A stretch of DNA of 64,000 nt from Botryllus schlosseri (taxonomy: Eukaryota). Under the pieces are notes generated by a model. It did no database searches, was not told where the DNA came from, and saw nothing but the letters and a program-made list of their open reading frames with translations. Each line of letters begins with the position of its first letter. The first letter of the stretch is position 1. The stretch is taken from contig CM119371.1 of the NCBI GenBank assembly GCA_051294905.1, forward strand, positions 2,606,001 to 2,670,000, in the 5' to 3' direction. A program made the translations under genes and the position numbers. This document shows, piece after piece, positions 1,125 through 60,830 of this stretch.

Positions 1125-3317
1125 TTCTATAGAATAATATCAAGGTCATGAAATATCTTCGTCATGAAAGCTTTAACCTCGGTAAGTTTACCTTTCAACA
1201 CTCTTCTGAAGTCAACTGTACTAAAGATATAGAGAAAGATCACTAGATCATAATGGAGCATGGAGAATCATACATAACTGACATTACAATGGATTTCATA
1301 TACTATACATTCATTTTCAACAAAACTTTTAATTTTATATTTTTTGGGTTTTTTTTTTTTGAAGAATTTTATTTCTATCATAATTCATCACACAAAACGT
1401 AAAGACAGTACACAGTACACAATGCACATCTAAGAATATAACACTTTTTTCATTTTTTTATATTTATGATTTTTATATAATTTTTATTATAATCAATTAT
1501 TTTATAGGTGTAGGACGATGGTATATATCCATTTTATCCCGCGAGTTGATCACAACTTGCGAGTAAATAGTTATAATAGCAAACAATTCAACAGGAAGAC
1601 TGCTTGAACTCTACTGTAGTCAAACAACCATGGCATTCAAATCCATTCAACCAGTATTTTGTGCCGTAAAACATTCGTCTTTGGAGATATGTAGGTTTGA
1701 CGTGACGTTTACGGCATCCATTGTTTTCGTCGATTTGTGAAGCTTTATGCAACTGTTTCGGTTACTTAATTGTAAAATGCATATTAGAAATAGTTTCGTG
1801 AAATTTCAGCGATTGAACATGAAATAGTCCCTTTGAATTCTGAAACCAATAGCAGTAATTCTGCTCTGCACGTCTCAATTTTTTTTGATGACGATTGGCT
1901 CTTGTACACGAGTAACAATGTTGCATCTACAAGTACAGCCTTTTCAAATACTACCTGAAAAACAATTACCGCTGAATAAATCACTGTCCCAGTTAATCAA
2001 TTACGTCAGCAAACTATTCGGACTATAAGCAGAAAATTAACTGTTCGCACGGGTATGTCATAACAATGCACAAAATAGAATTCGACTTGCTGTAGAGTAC
2101 CGGGGATCAGAGTCGGATGAATCGTAGGGATTGAATCTACAGGACGATTCGGCATTTAAATTTTCGCGAGACGATTCTCAAGTATCGTCGGCACACAATC
2201 CAATATACGGTAACATATTTAGTCAGTACACGAATTTCATGAAAATAAACCTGCAGACAACACATCGTATCGCGGGAGCGGTATTGGCTGGGACGGTGTG
2301 ATAGCTAGAGGACTTTGTTAACAGTTAACATTTCGATTAGAGAAGTTGTGGTGCTGTTAACAATATCGACTATCAATGACACTCGAAAAAGTAGCTATCG
2401 GCTTGTTTTATGGAAAACCTAAAATATTGGTGACGATAAGCGTACTACTGTCAGAATTGGATTATTAGATAATTCTAGTTGTCTAATTAGACCAATTAGA
2501 GCAAATGCCGGTAAGGTAACTTGAAATGAGTCTCTGCACTAATTCTAATCTAATTGGTAAATAATTTATATTTTCTCATTTTAATTCAAACCCTATCTCT
2601 TGGTTTTCCTGTAAATGCTACTCAGCGTACTGTATAGTGCGAAACGAGCCAAGCTTGTTGTACAGACATTTGCTATTATCATGCTCAGGAGATTGAACCA
2701 TAATTTGATAGTAACGGAACTGGATTCAATGACCTAGTTTTTTGCGGACTCGGTAATTCTAATCCCAATTTAATTTGGAAAAATGTATAGCTATAACTAC
2801 AGTTTTAATTTATTTTGAAAAAAGTAACGCGATAATTATAATTCTACCATAAGTTGGAAATATCTGTGTAGTGTCAATTCTTATTCTACTGTATGTTGAA
2901 AGAAAATTTAACTGTAATTATATTACTAATCAATTTTGCAAAAGCAGGAAATCTTCTAGATGACGGAGTCTTACTGGATATTAATCTGAAATCTTGTTGA
3001 TTTGCAGCACAACTATTGAGCACATGCAAGACGAAGTTTACGAAAAATTTGTAACTTGTGACTTGCGAGTACCTAAGAAAAGTATTCGACAACCTGTCCC
3101 AGTAATAATATTTGAAATGCACGTACTCCAGTACTTTTCAAACTTCATTTACACTATTGCTACATACACCCGAGTAAAAAATGAACGGGATCACTCCAAC
3201 TTCTGTTCGAGTTTAATAAATGACTATTTCGATAGTCTCTTTAAAAATTATATGACAACATATTACAACCAATAACTCTATTTATTTCACCTCCAGCAGC
3301 TAAACAATCCGGACGCA

Positions 3318-30400: not shown

Positions 30401-33400
30401 TGGAATACTAAAATAAAACACTTCCATTTAAACAGCCCTATAGTTGTACAATGTACACTGTACAGCAGGGGTCTCAACTCAAATGTGATCGCGGGCCAAT
30501 TTTCTAGTTTTTGACGACGCCGCGGGCCGCTGCATCAAATAGTTTCATTATATTTATTTTTAGGCCTTTTTGACGGGACCTTGCAAACTGGCATTCCATA
30601 CACATCTTGAAGTCTGATTTACTATCGTAATATTGATGCTTGCTACAAAAAAAGTTACATTTTAAGTATACGAATGAAATTGTTGTTGTACTTGGCCTAA
30701 TTTGTAATTATAACGAGTCGTAAACACCACGCGAGAGGACAAATGCCCCATGAAATCGTAAAAGCCGTCGTGTTATAAATTTGCAGCTAGCTGACACTTG
30801 ACGTGCCATAACTGTAGGTAGAATATTTTGGAATGTAACGAAGATTGGTCTGATATCAGAGCATTTGGGAGAAGTAGCCTTAATCCTGGATTTGGGCATA
30901 CTTCTTATCAGAAAGCAATTGATCATGCCATTGCTGAAGTCAAATTAGAATATTAGAGTATTGAAACAGGTGAATAACAACTTGAATATAATATTTGTGG
31001 AATGTGGAGCGCACTCATCTCACCTTCACTTGGCGATAATATGATATAGAAAAGACCCAAGATGACCCATGATGTATACCTATATAACAATACAATACAT
31101 CAAGTGGATCACAATATGCCAATACCATACCAACCTGCTTAGATAACTAAACGCTATGCAACACAAGCTATGACCTTTTGATATATTAGACTACTATTCT
31201 CCATGACATTTTGATAGTATGTTGTGTTTGTGATTGCACCAATAAGTCATGGCGTTCCGAGTCATACGTTATTTTCCGATTTCAAAGTTTGACCCGACTC
31301 ATCTAGAGTTATATTTATTTTATCTTCTAGTCTGTCCGAGTTCGAGTAATGATACAAAAGTCCAAATCACAACTTTCAGGAATCAGGAGCAGGCCATGTT
31401 TTATCATCATAATAGGGTAATGTGACATAATACCTGACCTTCCATAACATGGTAGCATTGGAAGTTATGTAATAGAGAAGTTTGATACCCCTGCTGTACA
31501 TTGTATGTTGTCATGTTTCCAATCCTAAATCTGTAAACCAAGTCAATCAGTTGCGTTCACCTAAAATGATGGAGGCGGAAGCCAGACATTTCAAGAAGAT
31601 ATTAATTTACTTGAGTTGGATAGAAACCAGCCATTTTAGTTTGTTGGTCGTCGTGTTTAGCAGGGTTGTAACCAAGTCATAAGGTTCCATGACACAAGTC
31701 AATCTCACTTCAATAGTTTTGTCTCGAGTAAAGTCGAGTGCTTTTCAATTCACCACCGGGTCAAGTCCGAGTCCAAGTCAGCTGGTGGAGGGTCGAGTCC
31801 GAGTCCGAGTCCAATTGAATCATTATGTTCACTGTTCAGTTTGCAGTTCAATCCGGTTCAACCCACTCTTTTCAACTCTGCTGGAGTGATGTAGAATGTC
31901 ACGCATTCATATTATAGTAATTTTTCTCGAGGTCCTAACAAATTGTGGCCCTATTGTTCGAGTATCTGGAACTGGACTGATAGACAAAATACCAATAATG
32001 TGGACATAGTCACTTTACTATTCTTCAAAGCTACAATGAAATGTCTTTCTTGGCCGTCCTACTCTCGAGGTGAATGACTAGGTCTATTCCCGCAAATGAC
32101 TCGAGTACAAGTCGATTCAATACAAAAATTGAATCGAGCAATTTGACGCATTTGACAAAAATGAGTCAAGTCAAGTTGAGTCAGCAAAAATTGCGACTCG
32201 AGTCATTTTTTTTCAAATACCGTACGTCAAATTACTCAAATATATCTCTAAACACCAAGGTTGTATTGACTCGAGTCAAGTCGAGTCACCAAAAATGGCG
32301 AATCGAGTATATATTTTGAAGCGGTTTTATGAGAAAAACGCAGTGAAATAGAGTCATGCGTCGGCTAAGACCACGAGAGATATTAATTGGTAATATCCCA
32401 AATAAATTTTGGCGTCAAAAGGGTCTGGGGTCACTGTGATTTAAATGAGTTAAGAATGTTTCGTGTTTCGACTCAACTGACGTCGCGGGTGGTGTTCAAA
32501 CCATCAGATCGCTTGTGGGCCGCACAAGTCCATTGATTCCACAATATATTGCTTCAAAATCCATACCCTTGTTTTCCATTAGACTACATCACAACAATAT
32601 TATCAATCCTCTATAGGGCCTACAAAATGACATGTAATGACAAGAGTGGCGATTTTTTAGTGACTCAACTTGGCTCGAGTCACTTTTTCAAATGCGTAAA
32701 ATGACTCGACTTGTACTCGAGTCATTGTACATCACTCGAATTGAGTCATATGACTCGAGACTAGGACGGCTTCGAAGATTAGTAAAATTACTACATTATT
32801 TCGTCCATCAGTCCTGGTACTTAAGAAATAGGGGCAGAAACTGTTGAGAACGAAGATAATATAACATATTTTTATAAATGTTATTATGATTAAGAGCTAA
32901 ACTATATCCCACTAGCATCGTTGGAAAAGGTGGATTGAATTGGATTAAAATCACAACTGATCAGGCAACACAATGACTTTGGACACAGTGTTGCTACTTT
33001 GACTCGGACCTCTACTCACTGACTGGACTCGGTGGTGATTTGAAAATGACTCGTCTTGACTCGAGTCAAAACTAAAAAAGTGAGATTGACTCGTGAAATG
33101 GAACCTTGTGACTTGGTTACAACCCTGCAAAATATTATATCTGATATTATTACGGATCATCGGGATTCAATTGCTGCTACAACTCGCAAACATTGGAACT
33201 GGCAATAACACGATGATTAAGCGGGTGAATGAAGTTATTATAAACTGATAAAACAGTGGCTGTACCGATGATATATATTTTCATAATCCTTGGTTTTAGT
33301 CGTAGGTCTATACTGATATCAAGCTGGCGTAGGCGTTGTAAAGAATACAGAAGATTTCACTGTATACGCAGAGTCATAAGCGATGCAGCAATGCAGCCAC

Positions 33401-36400
33401 ATCTATTTGAATTATATTTCTGTGTAACGATTATACTCTATATGTAACTCGCATACAACGGTTCAACATTGACGCTTTCGCTTCTGTGGATAACTATTTT
33501 TTGGTCAATTTTTTGACAAAAATCGGAACTCATTATACACAATTTTTTGTCTTCTCGGAATTTATTGTGAATGTCAGAGACTATAATTCCTAATGGTGAG
33601 TAGCCTAAAGTGAAGCTACAACACCGATGTTAGGTGGTCATGATGTGTCAGATGAAAATACTGGACATTTGCCGTCTTGACAGATTATTTAACAATTTCT
33701 TATTCAAAATCTTGAGATTTGTTTTAAATGTGCTGGATAATATACGCGTATATTTGAATCTGCTCAAAATTGCATCTCAGGCCGGATGAAATCGTTTGAC
33801 ATCCCTGGTTTAAATATTTGGCCCGCTAGTCTATTTTTTGCTTCTCATTCGGCCCGCTAGGAGAAATTACTGTCTACCGCAGGTTTATGAGCATCTTCAT
33901 TCCTACATTCTTCTAACCTGCTGTTTTCGTAGCGACCTTTGTAATAATCGTTGACGTCGACTTGTCGCATCTGAGGGTAAACTTCAAAATCGGGTTTCTG
34001 AAGCTCTTCATTTTGGAAGTCTTGAAGGACATCAATGGACGTTACTGCCTTGGTATTGTCGTTTATAGTTTGAATTAATTTTCGTAGCGGGACGGCTGAA
34101 AAAGAAAAGATTCTGGAATATCTAGGATGAGTTTGTGGCGCACAACAGCCTTGCATTCCAAGCAAATATTGTTTAGGCGCCTGTTCAGGAGTATCCGGAT
34201 TCTACAATTAAAAAAATTCATGCTCAAGGTATGTCACAAGAAAAAGGTAATGGCTTCATCCCATCTCCATGTCACGACGGCAGATGAGTTGGACTCGAGT
34301 CGAGTTGAGTCACCAAAGAGGCGCGACTCGAGTCGAGACTCGATTCATTTCAACCCTGGCTATGGGTTTCGTGTTACAATACATCTAATGCAGGATATCT
34401 ATATTTTAAACAGCATAAGGACTAGACCACATTATATGATGCAAATTGTACGTTTGCTATAGAATAGTGGCTCTAATTCATGGGCCACCAACACATGGAC
34501 TGTGTGGCACATTATGCGACACCTGCAGTAAGGCACAACACCTTAATTAGACGTTTATGAAACTTCCCCGATACAATGCATTGATGGACGTATTCCTGGA
34601 TAGCATATATTTGATTACAATACCAATATGTATACGGTAATGCGAACAAATTGACCAAACTCACCTTCATGGCGTGGTGTTATGACGTTTTGTGTGACCT
34701 GTTTGATCACCACTTTACCGTGGTCATTCACATTCAATTCCACATTGCCCTGGACGTCTTTAGCAAGGGCGGCTAGAATGATAATTTCATATTAACTACG
34801 GTAGATTCTAGAATGTGTGGAGAATTACAATAAACTTGTAACTTACATCTACCAAAAAAAGGATTGTAATTATTGATACGTCAGCATTCTACAAGCGTGT
34901 TTATTTCGCATCAGATTAACTAGCTTGGTCAGAAGTCAAATAAAAGATAGCTAAAAAGCACAAATATACGGATTGATTAATGATGAGCGTTGAGCTCATC
35001 AGGACACTGACACCATGCTGCTGTTGGAAAATCATGTGACATGGGAGTAGGCCTACATTGTTTTTCAATATAACCATTCTTAAGAATGTAATGGTTTGGT
35101 TTCCAATATAAACTATTAATTCACTAAACGTTTCATTGTTCAACCGGCATATTTCAAAGTAGTATGTCATTTCGTTGGGTACGATCGGTGTCGTTTGAAA
35201 GAGGTCACTACACGATGTCACTCCAAGGAAATGTTCAATCATTAAATTATAACAACTTGTGATTGCCACTCTTGACCAAAAACTCTTGGCTGCTCAGAAT
35301 ATTAAGGGGCCAACTAACCATTTTACTGGAGGAGACAACAGACCAGACAAGCACATAGCAGTGACACTAGCAATGCTGCCAAAATCTTATTTACAGAAGT
35401 AATTACATACTATTTTTTAGTATTTAAGCTCTGTGCATCACAATATAAAACGATCAGGGGAAGGAAGCAACCATATATGAGAAAAGCGAGGCCACATTAT
35501 TATATAAGACTGGATATTGTCTTCGGACTGCTTAAAGTCCTGGCGCGGGCCGTATCTTGTCCGCCCCTGTTCTAGCCTACATGGCATGTGACATGACCTT
35601 ATAAGGAAATATCTTGTTTCTCAATAACTTTGTCCCTTTTAACGCATTCTGCACATATGTTTGACAGACCAACCATAAAAGCATTAGTTCGCAGCTATAG
35701 GCTACGAGAAATCTCCTGAACAGTGCAATTTCCGGCATTAGTTAAAATAGGAGTATCAATGTACAGATGGTTCAACCTTCGACGCAATGGTGACAGTTAA
35801 AATCGTGGTATAAATACGATTATTGTAGTTTTTGAAACTAAAAAGTTTATATCCAAATAAACTTGCTCCTAGTTTAAGGTGGCTTTATGCCCCAGCATGT
35901 GCTTTCACGTCCTCAAGGGTTCGCGGCCTCTAGTTGGAGAACCACTGTCCTAGACCTTATATTTATGGCGATTAGGTCAAAATTGAAGCGTTTCGTCAAA
36001 AATGGTAAGAATTTTCAAACAGTTGATTCTTTTCTTGCAACATGGATTTCGTTGTATCGTAGATTTTGCACTGTCGGTGAACTTGTCATTTGACATTTTA
36101 CAGCTTGTAGCCTACTTTATAGGCCAACTTTTGTAGACGACCGATTGTAGGCTCATTGTGAATCATAAACATTCAAATGAAACAAATAGGTTGACAAATT
36201 GTCATGCTCAACATATCGCACTAACCCAACTGAAGCGAGACTGCGTGGGCACCATTGCCAGAATGAAGCAACACGGTTGGTCACGAGAAGTGTACGCACA
36301 ACTGCTGCTGTTGAATATTCTTTCTCCATTCTTGGCAAGCTACTTCGTAAGGACAGACAATTTCTACCCGAGAATGTAGGAAAGTATTTTTCGATGTACG

Positions 36401-42100: not shown

Positions 42101-43213
42101 CCAGTAAAATGACCATAAAATGATCTAATGCGGCGTTACAATTATTCGTTAGAAAGCCCAAACTATAGGGCAACAATGTCGCAAGATTACGAGTCACATG
42201 TAAACCTTACTTTTTCGTATTTACTCGAGTCAAGTCTATTCATCTCCGAGTCAAGTCCTAGTCCAAGTCGTCGAATCGGAGGGGGGGGGTGGAGTAGTCC
42301 GAGTCACGGAATCGTGTTCAGTGATCGTTATCGCGTTCTAGTTAGGTTGGTACCCAATATTTACAACTCTGCTTGAGTGATACGCCTATCGAATGCCTTA
42401 CATTCACATTATGCCGATTATCATCATTAACAATTTCAGGCATAAATTTTGATGTACGACTACTCATGGACGGAATATCAATATTATGTAAATTAACCAC
42501 TCTTCACGGTTACAATTAAATGTCTCTCCTGGCTGGCCGAGTCACGATTCATATGACTTGCGCGAGTCATGCGCAATTACTCGAATATAAGTCAAGTCAA
42601 TACAAAATTGATTGACTCAATTCGTGTAGAGTCATTTTCAGTATCGAAGAAATTGTCTCGCGTAAAGTCGAGTCACCTAAAAATCGTGACTCAAGTCGGA
42701 CTGGAGTCATTACAACCCTGCCGATTTCTGGACTTGCATATCGTCCAACGATGCCGCCACTGCACAGTGCACACCTATCAGTAGGTTGGTTGTATATAGC
42801 ATCAGCATAAAAGAACAACTTCCAAATGCGTTACGCATCAAACCCCAGGTACGTTTTCGTGTCCACCTTATTGGAAAAGGCGTGAGCATGTTTTGAAACC
42901 AGATCATCGTACACACACCTTTCTTTGATATTTTTGTCCTCTACCCCGAAGCCTGTATTTTCTTGCCTTCTTATTGCTCTTGATGCTTTCGCATGACTTT
43001 CCGCTACTCGGACTAGATTATGTGTTTCCTGTGAAGACGCCTTTGCTGCACAATCTTGCCCTGGTCTCTCGAATGGATGATTGGGCAACGGGAGTTTATT
43101 ACGGCTGGCTGTCATACCGTCGATGCCTTCATAGGGAAGTCTAGTAGTTGGATTTAACGAATCCATAGATCGAGTCGTTTTCCTGTTCTGCATTCCAGAG
43201 TTGTGTAGCGTTC

Positions 43214-43462: not shown

Positions 43463-45102
43463 CTACTTATTAATCGGGCTTCACACAATGATTGGAGTAA
43501 TCGAATCTGAATGGAGATTGGAGAATTAACTCCATGATTCGAATCAAAAAGTGAGACATGATTTTTCGGACACGAAAATGATAAGCTCATTGCTTCAAAT
43601 CGTTAATTCCTTATTGAAAATTGTAGTTTGGATACGATTTTCCCTTGCGGATGACTGTATATACAATAGGGCTGGGCACAATGATCAGAGTATCTGAATC
43701 TGAATTAAGTATTAATTCTAATGATTGGAGTCAAGTAGCGAAATTATGCGACCCTTGCCAATAGGGTCGTACAAAAATTGAGTACCTGAGTGAATCGATT
43801 CATAATCACGTATCAGTGTACGAGTCGAGTATTCGAGTATCACTCTTCACGACGAAATACCAGTAAGATGTCAAAGTTCATACATGTGCCTTTCAAGCTA
43901 CTGCAAAGAATACAATGCCTGTACTTTGGTATTTTTCGACCATACCGATTTCATTGCACTTTGCTACAATGCTATGGGTAGGTCATTACTTCAGAACTAT
44001 GTTAATCCCACTAACATTCGTATCTTTGTACTACATGTTCCGTTTGCCGCGACCCAACCGACCGAGATTTCAATGCTTCCAAATACTGCCGTAACTATAA
44101 TTCTCGGTACAAATTAAATTTCATTGACAAGTAGCTTATGATATCAGTACTCTATAGATTCAATAATCGAAGCAAATTTGATTACTCGAATCATTGTATC
44201 CATCCCTATTGGCCAATAAACGTTAATTAATGAACCAGAACCGTAGTTACCATCGTATTTTCCAATGGAACTCTAGTGCTCATATAACAGCTTACGAAAG
44301 CTGTCGTACCAAACTATGTCAGCGGAAATGAGAAATCTGTGAAGTTGTGATCAGCGCACAGCATTCGCAATGAAATAGGCATGGTCGACAAATACCATAC
44401 TGTACTCAATATGATATATAACCGGCATACAGGCGGCTGTAATTCACTGAAATAAGTGATGCAACTTATCCCAAAACAACTTTATACTTTTAAAAATGAA
44501 ATTGTAAAAGGAGCTAGTTGGAAGTGGAATTCGTCAAAAACAATGGTTTTTAATCATGTGTCCAGCGCCCCATGGTGGTAATTTGTGTTTTGTAGGGGGC
44601 GGAAACACTCAGGGGTGATATGGGGGTGCTGGGACTTTATAGGGGGCGCCGAAGAAAAATGGCGATTTAGTTATAGTTATTAGCTGTGTTGTTAGTTACT
44701 TGGTTAGGATTTTTAAGGTCGTTGTTAATAGATTAGTTGAAGCAGAGAGTCTTGCATTGTCAGTACAGAGTTTGCAAATCCAATAGTTTGTACAAGTCTG
44801 GTTGCAGCACCACAATAGTGGATCAAAATTATTCATGGACGCAACTACATACGTTTTCCACACCATTCAGCGCGTTCATACAAATTGTCCCATCTTCAGA
44901 GGTCTTGAATTGGATGAAGCACATCTGTTGGATATTTCAATGGCGGATTTGATGGAGATCTGAATACAAGATGTCAAAAACGTGACAGCAATGCATTCAA
45001 GCACACTAATACATCAAGGAGTTGTACAATGTACAGGCACCTGATGACTATACAGCTAATGGTAATAGTAGTAGTATAGATCGCTCGTGATGCGCCATTG
45101 TT

Positions 45103-45330
45103 TCTTATGGGCGGGGTGGCGAGCTAACGAGAAACCGGGGGTGGCGAGCTAACGTTTTCGTCTTATGGCGGGGGTGGCGAGCTAACGTTTTCGTCTTATG
45201 GCGGGGGTGGCGAGCGGCACTTATTTCTTATGGCGGGGGTGGTGAGCGGCAATTATGTCTTATGGCGGGGGTGGCGAGCGGCTATTGCGTCTTATGGTGG
45301 AGCTGGCATGCGGTTATTGTGTCTTATGGG
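45103..45330. repeat. Subterminal GC-rich tandem repeat, about 31-33 bp unit TCTTATGGCGGGGGTGGCGAGC... (mirrored at about 58700-58930)
   Basis: About 6-7 consecutive imperfect copies visible. Confidence 0.9.
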
Positions 45331-45696
45331 TGCGGTCGTGACTCGCCCTTTCAGGTATAGCTCGTGGCGGTGATTCGCCGTGAAAACTCGTGGTCGTGAC
45401 TCGTCTTTTTTGCTATAGGTGGTGGCGGTGATTCGCCTGTCGTGTATTCTTACGGGTGCGGTCGTGATTCGTACTTTCAGGCATCTCTCGTGCGGTGTTG
45501 AATATGTACGAGTCACCAACAATAACCGCACAAACGGAAACGTGGCTTGTTGTGAGGATTAAGCAGTGCGTGCGACCTATATTTCGAATGACCTGCGTGT
45601 GGAATTGTTTCCCGGCCAACTGCGTGCTACTATCGATTATTACACTAATCCATTCAGTGCGAAATAGTTTGCTAAATCTAGGAGTCACTTCCAAGG

Positions 45697-46560
45697 TAAT
45701 ATTTTGGTAATTAGTTTACCACGGAGCCGGCGTAGACGGCGATTCCAATACCAACAATAGCCGCGTTCACATATTAACACTCCAAATAGGTGTGAAATAG
45801 TTTGCAAACCCTGCGATCGCTGACAAGATAATGTCTCAGACATACGCGACTTGATGTTACAGGCATATCGATCACTCACGCGGTGAAATTTTCGTAAGCA
45901 GTTTGGGACAGAGCTTGATTTCACTCGTAAGATTTAATAAGTAACGAATAACAGACCGCCAGTGTCGGTAACTTGAATAGCGACAAATTGCCACTTATTT
46001 CCGCTCTAACCCTAATCCTTTGTGAAGTGAACGCTTATTCAAAAAGGTGTGAAATATTGGTAAAATCCCGCGACCGCTCACAAGATAATACCTAAGACAT
46101 AACCATCGCTCGCGACTCGCTGTTACATACACGCCGATCGTTGACAATGTAATATTTTGGTAATTGGTTTGCCACATAACCGGCGTAGACGGTGATACCA
46201 ACAATAGCCGCGTTCACATATTAACACTCCAAAAAGGTGTGAAATAGGTTGCAAACCCCGCGATCGCTGACAAGATATTGTCTCGGACATAACCATCTTT
46301 CGCGACTTGCTGTTACATACATTCCAATCACTCACAAGATACTATTTTGGTACTTAGTTTGTCACAGAACCGGATTTCGCTGGTAAAATTTAATAAGTAA
46401 CGAATAACAGAGCCGGCGTAGACGGTGATTCGAATACCGACAAATTTCCACTTATTTCTGCCCCAACCCTAATCCTCTGTGAAGTTGACGCTTATTCAAA
46501 AAAGGTGTGAAATAATTGTAAAATCCTACGTCGGTGACGCGATAATGCATCAGACATAGC
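45697..46560. repeat. Four imperfect direct-repeat modules of about 190-270 bp in the arm (mirrored at about 57470-58335)
   Basis: GGTGTGAAATA recurs at about 45789, 46045, 46236 and 46504, with shared CCGGCGTAGACGG and CGATCGCTGACAAGATA blocks. Confidence 0.85.
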
Positions 46561-46799
46561 GATCTAGTTATAGTACGGTGTCGGAATCCATTCGCGAGAT
46601 GTTCTATAGGTAAATTGAGATAATCCGAAACGAAATATTTTGACTTTGACGTAGTGTGAATTGAAATAGGATTGACAAACATGACCATCAACTTTCCCAC
46701 AGTCCCATATTGATATTATACGCACATTGATTTGAAACAAGTAATGGAACATTGCAACTCTATTCGCGATCCGACTTTTCGTTTGTCAAAGCGACATTT

Positions 46800-47700
46800 T
46801 AACATCTTACCATACTCAAAAGAATTATTTACAACATTAACAAGTGTTCAAAATCTAGTTTTCACTTACTTGATTATATCACTGCAACTCACAAATTTGA
46901 ATTAATTCATCCTGGTTGTATTTGTATGATCGGTCTTTTTTATTCAATTGTAAAGGTCGTTACTATTCTGAAGACAAAGTAAGCTATTTACTAATCGACA
47001 CATAAATGACTTGACATAAACATATTATATTTTGAGTATACGAGATTTGGATGTCTGAACAATAACTGAGAAATAATTTATCACAATAAAATCCGCATAT
47101 TACAGCGTAAAAGATGTTTGAATGTCAGCAACTCTGTACGGCCATAGTTACTATCACTAATTTACCCGACCAACTCGTCATGATCATTCCTGAAATCAAC
47201 ACAAATATGACCACTGACTTGAGTTAACCACAAAACAGCGTCAAGTTTTAAATCCACTTGTAGCTTACGGCTTATTTGAATGCGGGTTATGTTTTGTTGT
47301 AATTGAGTGTACGGAAATAGTATTACATCTCGACATCTTACCATCTTACCATATTCAAAGAGTCAACCACGAAAACATTGTCAAGTCAATCCGTTTGTAA
47401 CTTACCCAACTAACTCAAGCAGTATCAGTATGAAAACAACCAAGCATACACGAGTCCATACAATCGCTACAATCTAAAATCCATAGCAAGTTCGGTTTAG
47501 GCATATACCACCAACTCGTCCTTTTTGTTCAACTGTAAAAGTCGTTACTATACCACAAGACAAAGAGATTACTATGCGATATATTTTGTAAGACAAAAGT
47601 AATTACCACTCGGTGCAGGTGATTTGAGATTAACATAATATGTTTGAGTATACGAGATTTGAAAGTCTGATCAAAGTATAGTTGCGACTTCATTTCTTAC
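46800..47700. repeat. Diverged direct duplication within the arm (about 46800-47100 vs 47340-47700; mirrored in the right arm)
   Basis: Shared blocks CATCTTACCATA.TCAAA, GTCGTTACTAT...AAGACAAAG and TTTGAGTATACGAGATTTG. Confidence 0.7.
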
Positions 47701-50349
47701 AATCGAACGCTGGTGTTATATCGAAAGTTACCATTCTGTAAACATAAGGATTGATACATTGACGTGCCATATGCAATAGTTGATCATGGCTTGATTATTA
47801 CATTATTTGCGTTAATTAGACCCGGCGTTGTGGTAAAGGTTATTATGACAGCAACAAACTTTTCAGTGCCGTTGTTATTAACATATTGAGTTGTAAAACT
47901 ATGCGTGTCTGAAATGTTCTTGAATGGAAAATTATTTCACCTTGGTACATATCACCCTGCGTATCGCGGATATCAGAAAATATTTTACAAATGTAATTGT
48001 CTCCACTAACCAAGACTAAAGATGAAACAACAATTTCCTTTGTTGAACAATAACCGGTACAATACTTTATCATCGTAATCTGTGGTGAGAATTGAAACAC
48101 TTTCGCACATTACCCGGTGTCAAGATATCACTCTAGGTGAATTGACATACCACCGCTTGATTAATACCTAATCCGTTCGCACCATTTCACATACTTTGAT
48201 CATTACAAAAGTAAATTGGAATATGTTTGCTAGATGCATTCAATTCAGTTAGAAATGTCTGGTGCACAACAATCGTAATATCGAAAAAGTACTTGCTACA
48301 CTATAATTCACTAAACGTGTTTTGTATTGTTGTTCATTTGTAGTATTGATTGAAATTGTTTTTGAACCCTCAAATAATAATTCCCGACATGAAACTAAGC
48401 CGCTGAAAGTCGTTACCATCACAAAGAAACAATTTGCACGATGTTTACTAAATGTGTCCTATAGTTAGGTGTACTGGAATTATTTGTAAAACACACACAC
48501 ACACACACGATCAGAGAAATTGGAAATTTTTCCGTTGTCATTCGCTAAAGTAAATGTCGTCACAATACTCTGTCACTAAAAGACGTTACTTGGACGTGCT
48601 TGAATTCTAGACATAGTTCTGATTTACCCAACACAAGACCCAAGGACAACCCTAGTTTCAGCCGAACACAGATATCCAAAATATCACACACTTCGCTATT
48701 CCTAAAGCACAAACACCCGATACAAAATAATACTTGTTGTGTTGTTGCGGCATCATCACTCAACAATATCACCCTCAATACAAATGATGTTTATGTGTAA
48801 CATGCTATTGATTTGAACCACACCCACCTGACGGAAGAGGATTTACTCAATCTTTACAAAATGGATATTGACCAACATCACATCACCGGATTGTATCTGT
48901 TTCGCTGGATACGAGTTATGTTAGTTTAACAGTAAACAAATTTCACCCTCTTGGATTATGAACTCAATGCGTTAGCAGTCATTCAATATTTTGTTTGTGT
49001 CAACTAGTTACTTGGTATGTTACTCCACAACTCTTACAAAAGTACGAAAGATATTAACATCGCACTAAGTAATTAACTTTACTCGATATTCTCGCATTAC
49101 GAAACTAAAGAATGGTTGGTTAGACTCTACAAACTGTTTCGATATCACAAGACCTTTATTGTCTGAATGGGTGTTCATGTGTCTTAAGAACCAAATAGTT
49201 CAACACAGCGCTAGTACCAACAGAAACATCAGAGTTGTTTACACAAAAGTTTGTATGCGTACAGTATGCGAATACCATGCGTAAGTCCAGCACAATTGTG
49301 GTATCCATCCGGGTTTAGTTAACACAATTTACGACACCGAGGTCACCTCATCTTTCGTAAGACAACAAACCAACCAAGGTTTCAGGATATGTCCATGTTA
49401 TAGCAATAAATCAGCTACTCCAACAACAGAGTACATATGTTTTCTAGTTACGGTGCTTACATCTTACACACAAATCAATCTACTTTGCTAACAAAAAGTG
49501 CTGGGTCATCAAGTGATTGCCCTAGCAACAAAACAGCTAAACGTACTATCATACAAAATGGCCGTTATAGTCACCAACGGTACATGGTACAAGTAACAAG
49601 TCTCGAGAATCCAGTTATTGAAAAAACATGAAAGTGTTTCTCCTGCGCCAAGTCGTTATGTTGACGAAAGCGTATATTGTAGTATCATGATCGATTTGCA
49701 TTCGTTGGTCACAAAATGTCACTACTCTAAATAATTATTTTTCACTCAAACACAAACGCATACTTGTCACCAATCGTTTTCATCAAGCACGAGTTCAAGA
49801 AACCTGCTACGACATGAATTCCGATTTAGTTTTACAAATATTTTATAATTGTTTTTAGTAACACTATATCAATGTCATCAAGTTGAGTGTTTACGATATT
49901 GGTGTGTAGGTGTGTGTCATAGCCTACTTGGGGGGATCCGTATTACAATTGACTCGAATTGACTAAATGTAAGAAGGGTTGAAATGTTTCGAATCGATTC
50001 ATAAGTGGTCTTCGTTGTGGTTTTCGTCGGACATACAGCACGAACTAACTGTAGACTCCTCTCTGTTGTACAGCTACTCGGTAATCGAAATGCATTAACA
50101 TGTAAACAACGATCTTGTTTCGTCACACCAAAAATATGTTCACTGTCGCGATACTCCGCACAAGAGGTGCATAGCCTTTTCACACTCGTAATAGTATACC
50201 AACGTCAAGCGATAACGTTTAACAAGACCAACGACACTGAACCCACGACGTTTACCTATGTAAAATTACCACTTTCACTTGCCAGTCCATCGTTTACCTG
50301 ACTAAACATATTATTCTCCTTTGGAGATCTGACGTTTACCCAAAGTAAG

Positions 50350-50860
50350 AAACCATTTTCACTTGTAAATATATTTTTTCCTCGGCTAACAAACCTTTTT
50401 TCACTTGGAAATATATTTTTTTCCTGAGCAACAAACCTTTTTCACTTGGAAATATATTTTTTCTCTGGGTAACAAACCTTTTTCACTTGGAAATATATTT
50501 TTTCTCTGGTTAACAAACCTTTTTCACTTGGAAATATATTTTTTCTCTGGGCAACAAACCTTTTTCACTTGGAAATATATTTTTTACCCGGTAACAAACC
50601 TTTTTCCCTGAGCAACAAACCATTTTCACTTGGTGGTCCGTCGTTTACCCGAGTAAAAATATCATTTTCCTTTGGAGATCCGGCGTTTACCCAGTGTAAC
50701 AATACATTTTCACTTGGAAAAATACTTTTACCTAGAGTAACTAATCATTTTCTCCTGGGTAACAAACCCTTTTCGTCTGGAAACTATCATTTAACTGAGT
50801 ACCAATACCGTTTTCACTTGGAAATACATTTTTTCCCTGGGTAACAATACCGTTTTCGTT
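50350..50860. repeat. 41-bp minisatellite TTTTTCACTTGGAAATATATTTTTTCTCTGGGTAACAAACC (mirrored at about 53170-53680)
   Basis: About 6 close copies at 50350-50600, plus degenerate flanking copies. Confidence 0.9.
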
Positions 50861-53800
50861 TTGAAAACTGACAACCACACCGGCCAATTTGATATTTTTG
50901 TATATTGTTACAACGGTCAGTGACAAAATATACACCAACAACGACTCCGATACATTTGTGTATTCGCATACTCACTTGCTCTGGCGCAGTCCCATCAAAA
51001 TCGACGGTGAGCCACACACACACACACACACACAAACACAATAACAATGCGCTATTTCGATATGACTGCGATGTCCGGGTTCATGCTTTAGATTTTCCAG
51101 AACCAATCCGTCTAAAGTTGTAATCCCCCCACCTTTGTTAACTGGTTGATACACGGATAACAATCTTCGGAAAATGTAGGAACGCATACTACCCATCGTG
51201 CTAACGATTCCGGGTTACTTGTGATTAATTTCCTTGCTCACCCTATACAGATTATACGTACAGCGATATGTAGCGGTAATCGGTTTGGTCAATACATATC
51301 GCCCCATTCAGTATGGAATTACAAACCCAATACAGGTCAGTTCATAACCGGATCCGGATATTCAATGCAAAGCGATAAAGCAGAACCAATGACCAAATGT
51401 AATTAAACATGTAGATTCACAACCCTTGATTTTTTTCGTGAAAATTGACAATACATATCGAATATATTTTACGATGGTTCAACCCTACCAAGTATTCTCG
51501 TAAATGTGGTTTATGACATTACATACAATGCGTCGGTGTACAAATGTTGGGTGTTTATGCACACATCGGTATGACCTATAGACAACATCATCATACCCTC
51601 CAGGACTTCGTTATTATATCGCGAGTTCAATAAAATCAATTTTGTATATTCAATCGGTGGCATAGACGACGGAAGGCTTGGAGATCCAATGTAAAATTCA
51701 GACAAACAAACGGGTATATTTGTCCATCTTGGTTCTTCAATCAACTACCATTGGTGCTCTCGATACAGCTAACGGTACAGTATGCAACGCATATCATTAG
51801 AGTGATATATCCACAGGTAAATATGGGGCCTGGCCACAATAATTGTACGACGCCGACAAATCGATGCACGCAAGGTGTGGTTGATGATAATTGTTTCATG
51901 TGTCAAAGATACAGCACTCTCTTGTAAAGGTTAGCAGATCCTGCAGAAGCACAACTTGGATTACATTACCAAATCGATTTCAAACTTAAACCGAATCACT
52001 GGTGTTGAGAGTAGTGATATCCGATTTTTCGAATATTCATATCGACTTAGTGAACGATCGGTAACGACACTTATCATAAACATTATGAATATTAGTAATT
52101 CCAGTCGTGTCTATCTTGTGTTGTTACTAGTTGCTAAAACCATCGAGTGAATCAGTGAAAGGATAGTAATCTGGGTTAAAGCTCGATACAATTATTGTGG
52201 CCAGGCCCCATATTTACCTGTGGATATATCACTCTAATGATATGCGTTGCATACTGTACCGTTAGCTGTATCGAGAGCACCAATGGTAGTTGATTGAAGA
52301 ACCAAGATGGACAAATATACCCGTTTGTTTGTCTGAATTTTACATTGGATCTCCAAGCCTTCCGTCGTCTATGCCACCGATTGAATATACAAAATTGATT
52401 TTATTGAACTCGCGATGTAATAACGAAGTCCTGGAAGGTATGATAATGTTGTCTATAGGTCATACCGATGTGTGCATAAACACCCAACATTTGTACACCG
52501 ACACATTGTATGTAATGTCATAAACCACATTTACGAGAATACTTGGTAGGGTTGAACCATCGTAAAATATATTCGATATGTATTGTCAATTTTCACGAAA
52601 AAAATCAAGGGTTGTGAATCTACATGTTTAATTACATTTGGTCATTGGTTCTGCTTTATCGCTTTGCATTGAATATCCGGATCCGGTTATGAACTGACCT
52701 GTATTGGGTTTGTAATTCCATACTGAATGGGGCGATATGTATTGACCAAACCGATTACCGCTACATATCGCTGTACGTATAATCTGTATAGGGTGAGCAA
52801 GGAAATTAATCACAAGTAACCCGGAATCGTTAGCACGATGGGTAGTATGCGTTCCTACATTTTCCGAAGATTGTTATCCGTGTATCAACCAGTTAACAAA
52901 GGTGGGGGGATTACAACTTTAGACGGATTGGTTCTGGAAAATCTAAAGCATGAACCCGGACATCGCAGTCATATCGAAATAGCGCATTGTTATTGTGTTT
53001 GTGTGTGTGTGTGTGTGTGGCTCACCGTCGATTTTAATGGGACTGCGCTAGAGCAAGTGAGTATGCGATTACACAAATGTATCGGAGTCGTTGTTGGTGT
53101 ATATTTTGTCACTGACCGTTGTAACAATATACAAAAATATCAAATTGGCCGGTGTGGTTGTCAGTTTTCAAAACGAAAATGGTATTGTTACCCAGGGAAA
53201 AAATGTATTTCCAAGTGAAAACGGTATTGGTACTCAGTTAAATGATAGTTTCCAGACGAAAAGGGTTTGTTACCCAGGAGAAAATGATTAGTTACTCTAG
53301 GTAAAAGTATTTTTCCAAGTGAAAATGTATTGTTACACTGGGTAAACGCCGGATCTCCAAAGGAAAATGATATTTTTACTCGGGTAAACGACGGACCACC
53401 AAGTGAAAATGGTTTGTTGCTCAGGGAAAAAGGTTCGTTACCGGGGAAAAAATATATTTCCAAGTGAAAAAGGTTTGTTGCCCAGAGAAAAAATATATTT
53501 CCAAGTGAAAAAGGTTTGTTAACCAGAGAAAAAATATATTTCCAAGTGAAAAAGGTTTGTTACCCAGAGAAAAAATATATTTCCAAGTGAAAAAGGTTTG
53601 TTGCTCAGGAAAAAAATATATTTCCAAGTGAAAAAAGGTTTGTTAGCCGAGGAAAAAATATATTTACAAGTGAAAATGGTTTCTTACTTTGGGTAAACGT
53701 CAGATCTCCAAAGGAGAATAATATGTTTAGTCAGGTAAACGATGGACTGGCAAGTGAAAGTGGTAATTTTACATAGGTAAACGTCGTGGGTTCAGTGTCG

Positions 53801-56800
53801 TTGGTCTTGTTAAACGTTATCGCTTGACGTTGGTATACTATTACGAGTGTGAAAAGGCTATGCACCTCTTGTGCGGAGTATCGCGACAGTGAACATATTT
53901 TTGGTGTGACGAAACAAGATCGTTGTTTACATGTTAATGCATTTCGATTACCGAGTAGCTGTACAACAGAGAGGAGTCTACAGTTAGTTCGTGCTGTATG
54001 TCCGACGAAAACCACAACGAAGACCACTTATGAATCGATTCGAAACATTTCAACCCTTCTTACATTTAGTCAATTCGAGTCAATTGTAATACGGATCCCC
54101 CCAAGTAGGCTATGACACACACCTACACACCAATATCGTAAACACTCAACTTGATGACATTGATATAGTGTTACTAAAAACAATTATAAAATATTTGTAA
54201 AACTAAATCGGAATTCATGTCGTAGCAGGTTTCTTGAACTCGTGCTTGATGAAAACGATTGGTGACAAGTATGCGTTTGTGTTTGAGTGAAAAATAATTA
54301 TTTAGAGTAGTGACATTTTGTGACCAACGAATGCAAATCGATCATGATACTACAATATACGCTTTCGTCAACATAACGACTTGGCGCAGGAGAAACACTT
54401 TCATGTTTTTTCAATAACTGGATTCTCGAGACTTGTTACTTGTACCATGTACCGTTGGTGACTATAACGGCCATTTTGTATGATAGTACGTTTAGCTGTT
54501 TTGTTGCTAGGGCAATCACTTGATGACCCAGCACTTTTTGTTAGCAAAGTAGATTGATTTGTGTGTAAGATGTAAGCACCGTAACTAGAAAACATATGTA
54601 CTCTGTTGTTGGAGTAGCTGATTTATTGCTATAACATGGACATATCCTGAAACCTTGGTTGGTTTGTTGTCTTACGAAAGATGAGGTGACCTCGGTGTCG
54701 TAAATTGTGTTAACTAAACCCGGATGGATACCACAATTGTGCTGGACTTACGCATGGTATTCGCATACTGTACGCATACAAACTTTTGTGTAAACAACTC
54801 TGATGTTTCTGTTGGTACTAGCGCTGTGTTGAACTATTTGGTTCTTAAGACACATGAACACCCATTCAGACAATAAAGGTCTTGTGATATCGAAACAGTT
54901 TGTAGAGTCTAACCAACCATTCTTTAGTTTCGTAATGCGAGAATATCGAGTAAAGTTAATTACTTAGTGCGATGTTAATATCTTTCGTACTTTTGTAAGA
55001 GTTGTGGAGTAACATACCAAGTAACTAGTTGACACAAACAAAATATTGAATGACTGCTAACGCATTGAGTTCATAATCCAAGAGGGTGAAATTTGTTTAC
55101 TGTTAAACTAACATAACTCGTATCCAGCGAAACAGATACAATCCGGTGATGTGATGTTGGTCAATATCCATTTTGTAAAGATTGAGTAAATCCTCTTCCG
55201 TCAGGTGGGTGTGGTTCAAATCAATAGCATGTTACACATAAACATCATTTGTATTGAGGGTGATATTGTTGAGTGATGATGCCGCAACAACACAACAAGT
55301 ATTATTTTGTATCGGGTGTTTGTGCTTTAGGAATAGCGAAGTGTGTGATATTTTGGATATCTGTGTTCGGCTGAAACTAGGGTTGTCCTTGGGTCTTGTG
55401 TTGGGTAAATCAGAACTATGTCTAGAATTCAAGCACGTCCAAGTAACGTCTTTTAGTGACAGAGTATTGTGACGACATTTACTTTAGCGAATGACAACGG
55501 AAAAATTTCCAATTTCTCTGATCGTGTGTGTGTGTGTGTGTTTTACAAATAATTCCAGTACACCTAACTATAGGACACATTTAGTAAACATCGTGCAAAT
55601 TGTTTCTTTGTGATGGTAACGACTTTCAGCGGCTTAGTTTCATGTCGGGAATTATTATTTGAGGGTTCAAAAACAATTTCAATCAATACTACAAATGAAC
55701 AACAATACAAAACACGTTTAGTGAATTATAGTGTAGCAAGTACTTTTTCGATATTACGATTGTTGTGCACCAGACATTTCTAACTGAATTGAATGCATCT
55801 AGCAAACATATTCCAATTTACTTTTGTAATGATCAAAGTATGTGAAATGGTGCGAACGGATTAGGTATTAATCAAGCGGTGGTATGTCAATTCACCTAGA
55901 GTGATATCTTGACACCGGGTAATGTGCGAAAGTGTTTCAATTCTCACCACAGATTACGATGATAAAGTATTGTACCGGTTATTGTTTAACAAAGGAAATT
56001 GTTGTTTCATCTTTAGTCTTGGTTAGTGGAGACAATTACATTTGTAAAATATTTTCTGATATCCGCGATACGCAGGGTGATATGTACCAAGGTGAAATAA
56101 TTTTCCATTCAAGAACATTTCAGACACGCATAGTTTTACAACTCAATATGTTAATAACAACGGCACTGAAAAGTTTGTTGCTGTCATAATAACCTTTACC
56201 ACAACGCCGGGTCTAATTAACGCAAATAATGTAATAATCAAGCCATGATCAACTATTGCATATGGCACGTCAATGTATCAATCCTTATGTTTACAGAATG
56301 GTAACTTTCGATATAACACCAGCGTTCGATTGTAAGAAATGAAGTCGCAACTATACTTTGATCAGACTTTCAAATCTCGTATACTCAAACATATTATGTT
56401 AATCTCAAATCACCTGCACCGAGTGGTAATTACTTTTGTCTTACAAAATATATCGCATAGTAATCTCTTTGTCTTGTGGTATAGTAACGACTTTTACAGT
56501 TGAACAAAAAGGACGAGTTGGTGGTATATGCCTAAACCGAACTTGCTATGGATTTTAGATTGTAGCGATTGTATGGACTCGTGTATGCTTGGTTGTTTTC
56601 ATACTGATACTGCTTGAGTTGGTTGGGTAAGTTACAAACGGATTGACTTGACAATGTTTTCGTGGTTGACTCTTTGAATATGGTAAGATGGTAAGATGTC
56701 GAGATGTAATACTATTTCCGTACACTCAATTACAACAAAACATAACCCGCATTCAAATAAGCCGTAAGCTACAAGTGGATTTAAAACTTGACGCTGTTTT

Positions 56801-59800
56801 GTGGTTAACTCAAGTCAGTGGTCATATTTGTGTTGATTTCAGGAATGATCATGACGAGTTGGTCGGGTAAATTAGTGATAGTAACTATGGCCGTACAGAG
56901 TTGCTGACATTCAAACATCTTTTACGCTGTAATATGCGGATTTTATTGTGATAAATTATTTCTCAGTTATTGTTCAGACATCCAAATCTCGTATACTCAA
57001 AATATAATATGTTTATGTCAAGTCATTTATGTGTCGATTAGTGAATAGCTTACTTTGTCTTCAGAATAGTAACGACCTTTACAATTGAATAAAAAAGACC
57101 GATCATACAAATACAACCAGGATGAATTAATTCAAATTTGTGAGTTGCAGTGATATAATCAAGTAAGTGAAAACTAGATTTTGAACACTTGTTAATGTTG
57201 TAAATAATTCTTTTGAGTATGGTAAGATGTTAAAATGTCGCTTTGACAAACGAAAAGTCGGATCGCGAATAGAGTTGCAATGTTCCATTACTTGTTTCAA
57301 ATCAATGTGCGTATAATATCAATATGGGACTGTGGGAAAGTTGATGGTCATGTTTGTCAATCCTATTTCAATTCACACTACGTCAAAGTCAAAATATTTC
57401 GTTTCGGATTATCTCAATTTACCTATAGAACATCTCGCGAATGGATTCCGACACCGTACTATAACTAGATCGCTATGTCTGATGCATTATCGCGTCACCG
57501 ACGTAGGATTTTACAATTATTTCACACCTTTTTTGAATAAGCGTCAACTTCACAGAGGATTAGGGTTGGGGCAGAAATAAGTGGAAATTTGTCGGTATTC
57601 GAATCACCGTCTACGCCGGCTCTGTTATTCGTTACTTATTAAATTTTACCAGCGAAATCCGGTTCTGTGACAAACTAAGTACCAAAATAGTATCTTGTGA
57701 GTGATTGGAATGTATGTAACAGCAAGTCGCGAAAGATGGTTATGTCCGAGACAATATCTTGTCAGCGATCGCGGGGTTTGCAACCTATTTCACACCTTTT
57801 TGGAGTGTTAATATGTGAACGCGGCTATTGTTGGTATCACCGTCTACGCCGGTTATGTGGCAAACCAATTACCAAAATATTACATTGTCAACGATCGGCG
57901 TGTATGTAACAGCGAGTCGCGAGCGATGGTTATGTCTTAGGTATTATCTTGTGAGCGGTCGCGGGATTTTACCAATATTTCACACCTTTTTGAATAAGCG
58001 TTCACTTCACAAAGGATTAGGGTTAGAGCGGAAATAAGTGGCAATTTGTCGCTATTCAAGTTACCGACACTGGCGGTCTGTTATTCGTTACTTATTAAAT
58101 CTTACGAGTGAAATCAAGCTCTGTCCCAAACTGCTTACGAAAATTTCACCGCGTGAGTGATCGATATGCCTGTAACATCAAGTCGCGTATGTCTGAGACA
58201 TTATCTTGTCAGCGATCGCAGGGTTTGCAAACTATTTCACACCTATTTGGAGTGTTAATATGTGAACGCGGCTATTGTTGGTATTGGAATCGCCGTCTAC
58301 GCCGGCTCCGTGGTAAACTAATTACCAAAATATTACCTTGGAAGTGACTCCTAGATTTAGCAAACTATTTCGCACTGAATGGATTAGTGTAATAATCGAT
58401 AGTAGCACGCAGTTGGCCGGGAAACAATTCCACACGCAGGTCATTCGAAATATAGGTCGCACGCACTGCTTAATCCTCACAACAAGCCACGTTTCCGTTT
58501 GTGCGGTTATTGTTGGTGACTCGTACATATTCAACACCGCACGAGAGATGCCTGAAAGTACGAATCACGACCGCACCCGTAAGAATACACGACAGGCGAA
58601 TCACCGCCACCACCTATAGCAAAAAAGACGAGTCACGACCACGAGTTTTCACGGCGAATCACCGCCACGAGCTATACCTGAAAGGGCGAGTCACGACCGC
58701 ACCCATAAGACACAATAACCGCATGCCAGCTCCACCATAAGACGCAATAGCCGCTCGCCACCCCCGCCATAAGACATAATTGCCGCTCACCACCCCCGCC
58801 ATAAGAAATAAGTGCCGCTCGCCACCCCCGCCATAAGACGAAAACGTTAGCTCGCCACCCCCGCCATAAGACGAAAACGTTAGCTCGCCACCCCCGGTTT
58901 CTCGTTAGCTCGCCACCCCGCCCATAAGAAACAATGGCGCATCACGAGCGATCTATACTACTACTGGTAATACAGAGACACTACAGTAGATCTTGAACTG
59001 GGGTCTATATATCCTTTGATGGTGTGCAACTGCACATATACTAGTTGAAGGGCCAAGTCGACTCATTACACAGAGTGACTCGAGTCGAGTCATTTCAGTA
59101 CTTCGAGAAAATGACTCGAGTCAAGTCGAGTCAGCAGAAAGACGTGGCTCGAATCGAGCCATGACTAGAGTCATTGCAAGTTGCAACCCTGATTTGTCGC
59201 GTATGCTGCGACACGGCCAATCAAGTTTTCAAAGCTTCCTCAGTGGAAATAGCATCGAAACTATAATTGTCGTTAGTAAATCAACTTTCAAATGCGAGTA
59301 GCGTATGATACCGGTACTCGAAAAAATCGTATTTTACTACCCAACTAGAATCATTGTGCCCAGCCATAACAATGCATATAAATATTGTGAGAGATGTATA
59401 GAGCAGACAGCAAGATGGATAAAAATGGCAACACAATTATTCTACTGCAATCCCAACATAGTGTAAGGCTAGCGCTAAAATTGCATCGATTCAACTTGAG
59501 TCGGACTCGAGTCATTATATTGGATATACAAAATGACTTGACCCATACGTCGGTCATTGTGCATTCCTCGGACAAGTCATAAGACTCGTGTATTAGTACC
59601 AATATTTGGAAAACAGACAGAAAAACTGTGTTTATGTGTATTTACAAACAAGTTAGGAGTGAGAAGAATGACTAGTGGTTGTAATTGGTAGTGGCGAGAA
59701 AACGCAGATATTCGGATCTGAAATCATTGGTTTGTCAAAAAATATAATTCATAATTTACCTACTTTTCACCTCATATTTCATTCGGAGATTGATGTTTGT

Positions 59801-60469
59801 CAGATTCCGACCGATCCGTTTGGATTGTCGCGTAAACGTCTTTTACGAAAGATGTACCTGAGGAACAGCCTTTCAAATGAGATGCAATCAACTGCAATAT
59901 AATCAGAAGTGGTTGTATAAAGTAGAATCAGTAAAGCTATCTATACATAGAAAGCACAGTACCCGGCTAAAGTACCCGGCTCTATTTCCTATAGTTTACA
60001 GGCACAAATAGTCAAGATGTAATTGGTGTTACTCAGGTAGAAGTAACGTCATACATTGCTAGTCATGCACAATTCGTTAGTTAGAAGATAAAGGCCAGTT
60101 TTTCCCAGAAACTGAAAGCTGTTCCTGTAGTTTAAGTTGACCAAAGTCTTAACCACTCCGATAATTAGTGCTAGTATGCAAAACATATTTTGGATTTTAT
60201 TACTGTAAAAAATTAAATTGACTTCATTACTGACCACCACTGCTTGCATAGGACCAGATTCAGTTTTCTAGTTTGTTTCACGTCCAAGCTTAGCATTGGT
60301 TGTGTGTGCTTGAAGCGAGATGAAATATATTTTGAATATCGGCGGCTACATCGGCATGATCAGCAGAAGTGTAGTTATCGGTTTGATCGCTAGCTGATGA
60401 AATATCCGGTATTGGTCAGGCTCTAGTTCAACACACAATGGTAGGGGGGCAGACTTGTACACCTTACTC

Positions 60470-60830
60470 ATTTTCCAAACTAGCAACTAGATCTACTTAT
60501 TTTTCGAAACTAGCAACTAGAATTAGTCATTTTTAAAAATTCGCCACCAGAAATAGAAATATAATTACTCAATTTTTTTAAAATTAGCAATATGAGTTGA
60601 ACTGGAACCACGCTCTTTTCAGAATCTGTAACTAGAACTGGAATTACTTAATTATCAAAACTAGTAACTGGATTTACTTATTTTTTTAAATTCGCCGCTA
60701 GAAATAGAAATACTCAATTTTTTAAAAATTAGCAATTTCAGTTAAACTGGAACTACGCAATTTTCAAAATCCGTAACTAGAACTGGAACTACTTGATTTT
60801 CAAAACTAGTAACTGGAATTACTAATTGGT
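60470..60830. repeat. Degenerate tandem repeat of about 30-35 bp (ACTAG(T/C)AACT(A/G)GAATTACTTATTTTT(C/T)AAAA)
   Basis: Recurring actag/aactggaa/ttact/tttt-aaaa units with a higher-order duplication. Confidence 0.7.

Follow-up and report, generated by a model that had tools for sequence, protein, structure and literature searches.

In vertebrates, Mavericks (also called Polintons) most commonly carry the end motif 5'-(AGT)2//(ACT)2-3', with (AG)3//(CT)3 as the alternative, and a perfect 6-bp target-site duplication (TSD), and intact copies measure 12,723–24,620 bp and have terminal inverted repeats (TIRs) of 46–1,447 bp (Barreat and Katzourakis, PMC8097293). Their replication and movement have never been shown experimentally; in the current model, the TIRs of the excised strand anneal, a protein-primed polymerase replicates the element extrachromosomally, and an integrase inserts it with a new TSD (bioRxiv 10.64898/2026.07.28.741278). 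How Polintons are excised is unknown (PMC2836005). Non-autonomous DNA transposons are sorted in Repbase by their termini and TSD length (PMC4455052). Here, we describe an element of 13,899 bp at positions 45067–58965 of a window on Botryllus schlosseri contig CM119371.1, the window being the whole 64-kb stretch that was analysed. The element shares (AGT)n...(ACT)n ends, a 6-bp duplication and TIRs with autonomous Mavericks/Polintons (PMC8097293; Polinton-1_SP and Polinton-1_DR in PMC3014272). Yet, while the autonomous members are described as having seven to eight core genes and the short TIRs given above, this element has no genes, belongs to a highly repeated family and has TIRs of 6.8 kb that take up 98% of its length.

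Other systems resemble the locus in different respects. Foldback transposons (Drosophila FB, Galileo of the P superfamily, Tetris and sea-urchin TU) have, as the element does, very long TIRs with outer tandem subrepeats, are mostly non-coding and reach high copy numbers. Their arms, however, do not exceed about 1 kb and consist mainly of repeats, and their ends are not trinucleotide repeats. Foldback-type duplications comprise 7–9 bp, compared with 6 (or 8) bp at the present locus. Long inverted repeats are also found in the DNA of incomplete adenovirus particles. Snap-back or copy-back viral genomes (PMC13506859; for adeno-associated virus, PMC8235507) share with the element near-total complementarity, a small non-complementary centre and the lack of coding sequence, and it has two identical replication ends and a presumed dependence on a helper, just as they do. 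On the other hand, snap-back genomes are extrachromosomal by-products of infection, whereas this element is chromosomal, flanked by a target duplication, present in many copies and found across species labels. Ginger2/TDD elements share the integrase-related transposase family with 6-bp targets (PMC2836005). We rejected membership in this group, which requires TGTNR ends and RTATAY targets (PMC2836005), as opposed to the AGTAG and GGTAAT observed here. We found no gene-less or palindromic Polinton described in the literature, although Repbase Reports, Dfam and supplements lay outside this search and the present family may already be curated there.

Structure and content of the palindrome

A sequence-only reading of this DNA had proposed that the whole element is a palindrome with Polinton-like termini. 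The palindrome was borne out by an inverted-repeat search, which returned two collinear blocks (45067–51038 with 52994–58965, and 51015–51847 with 52187–53019), and by global alignment: arms of 6,781 and 6,779 bp enclose a spacer of 339 bp. Together, the arms account for 97.6% of the element, in line with the reading's figure of about 98% for the "TIR", and at 6.8 kb each of them far exceeds the 46–1,447 bp reported for Mavericks (PMC8097293). Arm-to-arm identity is 99.8%. When the right arm was reverse-complemented and aligned over its full length with the left arm, 13 substitutions were seen, 11 transitions and 2 transversions, along with a sole indel of 2 bp (CA) within the (CA)n run at 51013. 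The outermost 1,922 bp are identical between the arms, and the differences are skewed towards the centre, 10 of the 13 falling within 50586–51617 (permutation p = 2e-4 for mean position). Within the 64-kb window, neither similarity to the spacer nor a further copy of the arm was found elsewhere. Besides, an arm contains no inverted repeat of its own and is thus one-ended, and we therefore ruled out that the palindrome represents two complete TIR-bearing elements in head-to-head orientation.

The element starts with AGTAGTAGTATAG and ends with CTATACTACTACT. Its left boundary reads ...GCTAAT GGTAAT and then AGTAGTAGTATAGATCG... (45061–45067), its right boundary ...CGATCTATACTACTACT and then GGTAAT ACAGAG... 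(58965–58971). The span of 45061–58971 originally assigned to the element takes in both copies of GGTAAT and thus needs to be trimmed to 45067–58965, while the presence of the element itself stands. The probability that a 6-bp match would by chance abut inverted-repeat ends defined independently of it is ~1/4096, which makes coincidence an implausible source of the flanking repeat. For the motif AGTAGTAGT, 0.24 occurrences are expected in the window and three are present, two of them being the element ends. We also considered the third (13030–13038, minus strand) as the end of another element and rejected it, as it shows no recognisable terminus and has no inverted partner nearby.

Inside each arm, a subterminal array of seven motif copies covers positions +39 to +272, with spacings of 58, 33, 32, 32, 32 and 32 bp (Table 1). 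This motif matches 16 times in the window, compared with 3.1 expected matches, and 14 of these fall within the element ends. The outermost 600 bp of either arm are rich in GC (52.5% versus 38%), and the observed/expected ratio of CpG is 1.2–1.4 in the element and ~1.0 in the window, i.e. CpG is not depleted. Further inwards, the innermost ~0.8 kb of the arm lies between the (CA)11 run and the spacer, and the inner end of the arm is marked by a short near-palindrome, ACAAT-A-ATTGT. As to coding content, arm and spacer hold no ATG-started open reading frame of at least 80 amino acids (aa), and their longest stop-free stretch, 123 aa, is translated tandem repeat. All 54 stop-free pieces of at least 45 aa in the element stayed below the curated cut-offs of the Pfam families, including the best-scoring one (E = 0.0016), and Pfam did not detect a transposase remnant in these open pieces either. 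The element is non-autonomous and without coding capacity.

Table 1. Features of the palindromic element and its flanking repeats (window coordinates)
Feature	Position	Strand	Remarks
Left GGTAAT	45061..45066		Flanking direct repeat, putative 6-bp TSD
Terminal (AGT)3	45067..45075	+	Outermost bases of the inverted repeat
Left arm	45067..51847	+	Non-coding
Subterminal array, 7 copies of TTATGG-N4-G-N-TGG	45105..45338	+	Candidate protein-binding sites; mirrored at 58694-58927
Tandem duplication, ~420-430 bp	45692..46564	+	80% identity; mirrored in right arm
41-42-bp tandem repeat arrays	50346..50866	+	Mirrored in right arm
(CA)11 microsatellite	51013..51034	+	Site of the sole indel and of the read-depth step
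Spacer (hairpin loop)	51848..52186		Unique
Right arm	52187..58965	-	Reverse complement of left arm
Terminal (ACT)3	58957..58965	-	(AGT)3 on the minus strand
Right GGTAAT	58966..58971		Copy of the flanking direct repeat

A multi-copy family in public sequencing runs

Contigs from four of 24 listed public sequencing runs (X1, X5, X6 and X12, the last of which carries another species label) were aligned to positions 44000–60000. In all four runs, the majority of contigs were less than 99% identical to the copy in the window. X1 contributed 154,294 aligned contigs (44,329 at ≥99%, 59,244 at 95–99% and 50,721 at 90–95% identity), X5 12,439 (3,468, 4,216 and 4,755, respectively), X6 8,778 (2,809, 2,906 and 3,063) and X12 2,004 (439, 621 and 944). 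As many as 77 distinct contigs shared one variant at a single position. The summed word depth of the arm bins exceeded that of the outer flank bins by a factor of 10^2–10^3 in each of the four runs (e.g. ~1e5 versus ~200 in X1 and ~300–800 versus ~5 in X12), these depths being sums over contigs rather than copy numbers and indicating no more than "many copies". The arms are part of a diverged family with many copies, which is present in the host species and under at least one related species label, and are not a one-off accident.

Depth was not uniform along the element. From the outer 5.9 kb to the centre (50942–53077), it fell about five-fold, and did so abruptly at the (CA)n run. The central clustering of the arm differences coincides with this step at (CA)11. 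The spacer itself was recovered from X12 in a contig of 399 nt (51818–52216, nine differences) that covers the spacer and reaches exactly 30 nt into either arm, which is what a graph of 31-mers (31 being the word length we assumed for the Logan contigs) yields for a spacer lying between inverted copies of one sequence. It was covered, too, by contigs of X6 (51830–51976 and 52031–52216) and X5 (51958–52171). The depth of the spacer contigs was above that of unique sequence, at 3,339 in X5 (unique flank contigs, ~36–75), 41–123 in X6 (~4–12) and 14.7 in X12 (~4–5), which suggests that the palindromic form, too, exists in many copies, with other family members seemingly possessing the outer arms without the present centre.

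These data also bear on whether the palindrome might have been created during assembly, either by an inverted misjoining of copies of a high-copy repeat or by building in a mirrored long read. The family is indeed highly repeated, a circumstance that invites misassembly, and no single read or contig among those aligned spans all 13.9 kb, such that the exact arm length has no independent confirmation. Yet, the sequences flanking the two ends are unrelated to each other and carry an exact, flush repeat of 6–8 bp, as would the two sides of one insertion; the arms differ from each other, mostly by transitions, as natural mutations do; and the spacer between the inverted arm ends recurs in contigs from other studies and under another species label. 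Mirrored-read artefacts generally take the form of spacer-less foldbacks at contig ends and not of internal elements with distinct flanks. The unrelated flanks with their flush repeat, the non-identical arms and the spacer contigs in other runs thus render a mirrored-read artefact unlikely and an assembly error of either kind very improbable, and we treat the palindromic element as a genuine insertion.

One contig of X5 joins position 45063 directly to 58966, skipping 13,902 bases (depth 152; the shorter side covers 26 nt), and was seen in this run alone of the four. At a clean empty site, 13,905 bases would be missing, and the joint form hence retains three extra ones (GGT). It may represent a footprint left by excision or an allele, or else stem from a paralogue of the left flank, which is weakly repeated.

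Superfamily, propagation and origin

With some reservation, we favour the view that the locus harbours a non-autonomous DNA element of the Maverick/Polinton type, with a hairpin layout extending over its whole body and moved in trans, and regard this as reasonably probable. It is flanked by a perfect duplication, GGTAAT, that is flush with the maximal inverted repeat, albeit in one copy, and its (AGT)3...(ACT)3 termini fit the Maverick end motif (PMC8097293), which supports this part of the sequence-only reading. Finding AGT three times over at the terminus of an element from another superfamily would be a coincidence of 4^-6 or rarer.

Several observations weigh against this assignment. Unlike an autonomous member, the element does not encode pPolB and a retroviral-type integrase, and Pfam detected no Polinton genes or remnants (pPolB, integrase, capsid, ATPase or protease) in it, nor any Polinton genes in the 43 stop-free frames of at least 85 aa in the rest of the window. 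It shows no sequence link to any autonomous Polinton, and exact scans of metagenome and viral contigs with a terminal 26-mer and a subterminal 22-mer returned no locus. At 6.8 kb, its arms are ~5 times as long as the longest Maverick TIR reported (1,447 bp; PMC8097293), TIR size being a typical rather than a defining property. The many copies to which the summed depths point would be unusual for animal Polintons; in Anolis, for instance, there are fewer than ten copies and no non-autonomous ones (PMC3014272). Moreover, while the proposed GGTAAT duplication proved exact over 6 bp and flush with the inverted repeat, the flanking repeat can also be parsed as 8 bp, TGGTAATA (45060–45067 and 58965–58972), which leaves a TIR that is shorter by one base, perfect, and ends in GTAGTAG...CTACTAC. 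On grounds of coincidence alone, the 8-bp parse is favoured by ~4:1, as it spares us two chance extensions (~1/16) at the price of complementary end bases (~1/4), and the single copy observed with its flanks is insufficient to settle the matter.

The 8-bp parse would make the element a foldback-type cut-and-paste transposon (hAT-, P- or sea-urchin TU-like, or of an undescribed kind) whose true ends are GTAGTAG...CTACTAC, whose duplication is TGGTAATA and whose likeness to Maverick ends is due to chance. We consider this unlikely, even though it has more in its favour than the extended direct repeat. Long TIRs with short outer subrepeats, here the seven motif copies, recall Foldback, Galileo and Tetris (PMC3573991, PMC4168063, PMC4079207), and many copies are the norm in families of this sort but unusual for Polintons. 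The three extra bases in the joint contig of X5 could be an excision footprint, yet this contig is a single one from one of four runs, with a short side of no more than 26 nt and a depth two to four times that of unique sequence, and may stem from a paralogous site. Neither do ~6 kb of each arm consist of subrepeats, unlike the arms of FB, nor is a transposase remnant detectable by Pfam, and the standard choice of the maximal TIR gives a duplication of 6 bp. hAT elements end in YARNG, and the ends GTAGTAG or AGTAGT do not fit those of hAT or P elements as we know them; triple trinucleotide ends are, to our knowledge, not known for hAT, P or Mutator. What tips the balance is solely that the ends match the published motif (PMC8097293): since the triple terminal AGT is a specific mark of Mavericks, we still prefer the Maverick reading over an 8-bp foldback transposon. 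Should further copies prove to be flanked by duplications of 8 bp, the locus would represent an unusually long foldback transposon, a more ordinary result. Dada elements, which target small-RNA or tRNA genes, were considered as well. A Dada-like insertion was rejected, as the interval 43500–60500 contains no Rfam family and no tRNA.

If the element is of the Maverick type, its propagation can be envisaged as follows, with both the identity of the helper and the mode of replication being what we infer rather than observe. Proteins supplied in trans by autonomous Mavericks would recognise the two identical ends, each made up of (AGT)3 and the seven subterminal motifs. A displaced single strand would then fold into a hairpin with a 6.8-kb stem and a 339-nt loop, thereby regenerating a duplex end with the trinucleotide repeat, on which the helper's protein-primed polymerase could initiate and slide back in the manner of adenovirus. 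Adenovirus itself initiates on (CAT)2 ends with sliding back. Copying round the loop would restore the full duplex, and a retroviral-type integrase from the helper would attach the two ends to target positions 6 bp apart, leaving GGTAAT on each side. Within the stem, the arms might correct each other, which would explain their 99.8% identity despite family members that differ by up to 10%. Even packaging by a helper capsid is conceivable, because 13.9 kb falls within the 12.7–24.6 kb range of Mavericks (PMC8097293).

As for the origin of the palindrome, the element displays what defines a snap-back defective genome, i.e. inverse complementarity over nearly the whole length (PMC13506859), and it lacks coding capacity. 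The palindrome most probably arose once, by copy-back (a template switch) or another inverted duplication of one end of a non-coding relative, and was then propagated as a unit. Copy-back as such is a possible but tentative explanation. With no gene remnant in 6.8 kb, the arms are not a direct copy-back of the gene-dense end of an autonomous Polinton; copy-back, if any, would have taken place in a relative that had already become non-coding, or in the distant past. An element of the same superfamily could also owe its palindrome to DNA repair by the host, through fold-back priming at a break or recombination between inverted copies, followed by mobilisation. This route, which we rate as possible though rather doubtful, would account for the asymmetric spacer, since fold-back priming at a break classically leaves one of a few hundred base pairs. 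The arms end at the near-palindrome described above, and both the five-fold lower depth of the centre (the inner 0.8 kb and the spacer), with its sharp step at the (CA)n run, and the central skew of the arm differences (p = 2e-4) fit a composite history. However, no clear or decisive microhomology was found at the spacer–arm junctions, no progenitor combining arm and spacer with a different continuation was recovered, and our data do not distinguish host repair from a polymerase template switch, both of which fit equally well.

The Maverick reading could be extended to a self-propagating snap-back satellite of Mavericks/Polintons, that is, a gene-less hairpin genome of helper-like length that originated by copy-back in the course of protein-primed replication, retains two perfect origins and integrase ends, has its arms homogenised by the folding of each displaced strand, became amplified to many copies and persists across related species. 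While we regard this full scenario as speculative and rather unlikely, it would, if true, provide an endogenised, heritable counterpart to the defective-interfering genomes of a lineage of eukaryotic double-stranded DNA viruses and, if transcribed, the satellite could be a source of long hairpin RNA directed against its own family. More generally, a multiplied, gene-less palindrome with Maverick ends would constitute natural evidence for a replicative, strand-displacing stage and would define the minimal cis requirements as the terminal repeat plus the subterminal motifs. It would also imply that these virus-like elements have parasites of their own, comparable to the defective snap-back genomes of adenoviruses and parvoviruses. 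Besides, near-perfect palindromes of 14 kb are a hazard for genome assembly and hot spots of rearrangement.

Other features of the window

Outside the element, clear Pfam families among the 43 other frames of the window were confined to NACHT together with NOD2_WH, and to a Harbinger-type DDE domain. The former belong to a 474-aa open frame on the minus strand (28377–29801; NACHT, E = 1.2e-15; NOD2 winged helix, NOD2_WH, E = 4.8e-07), an NLR-type gene or exon that points to an animal genome, and the latter to a 195-aa open frame on the same strand (23951–24538; DDE_Tnp_4/Harbinger-type transposase domain, E = 1.3e-14), a PIF/Harbinger remnant. Weak, sub-threshold matches to GIY-YIG (E = 2.7e-4; 25149–25559, plus strand) and MIF4G (E = 7e-4; 2985–3272, plus strand) may be fragments of decayed genes or retroelements.

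A second, small foldback lies at 7318–8831, where five collinear blocks (7318–7761 versus 8393–8831) are 84–89% complementary across ~630 bp of intervening sequence. In the right flank of the element, positions 59054–59179 hold a short interspersed repeat (~100 bp, 72–83% identity) with relatives at 42622–42715, 20493–20569, 32108–32307, 32661–32711 and 34292–34353. In each of the four runs, reads were very deep over the bin 58952–59485, indicating that the element adjoins another abundant repeat.

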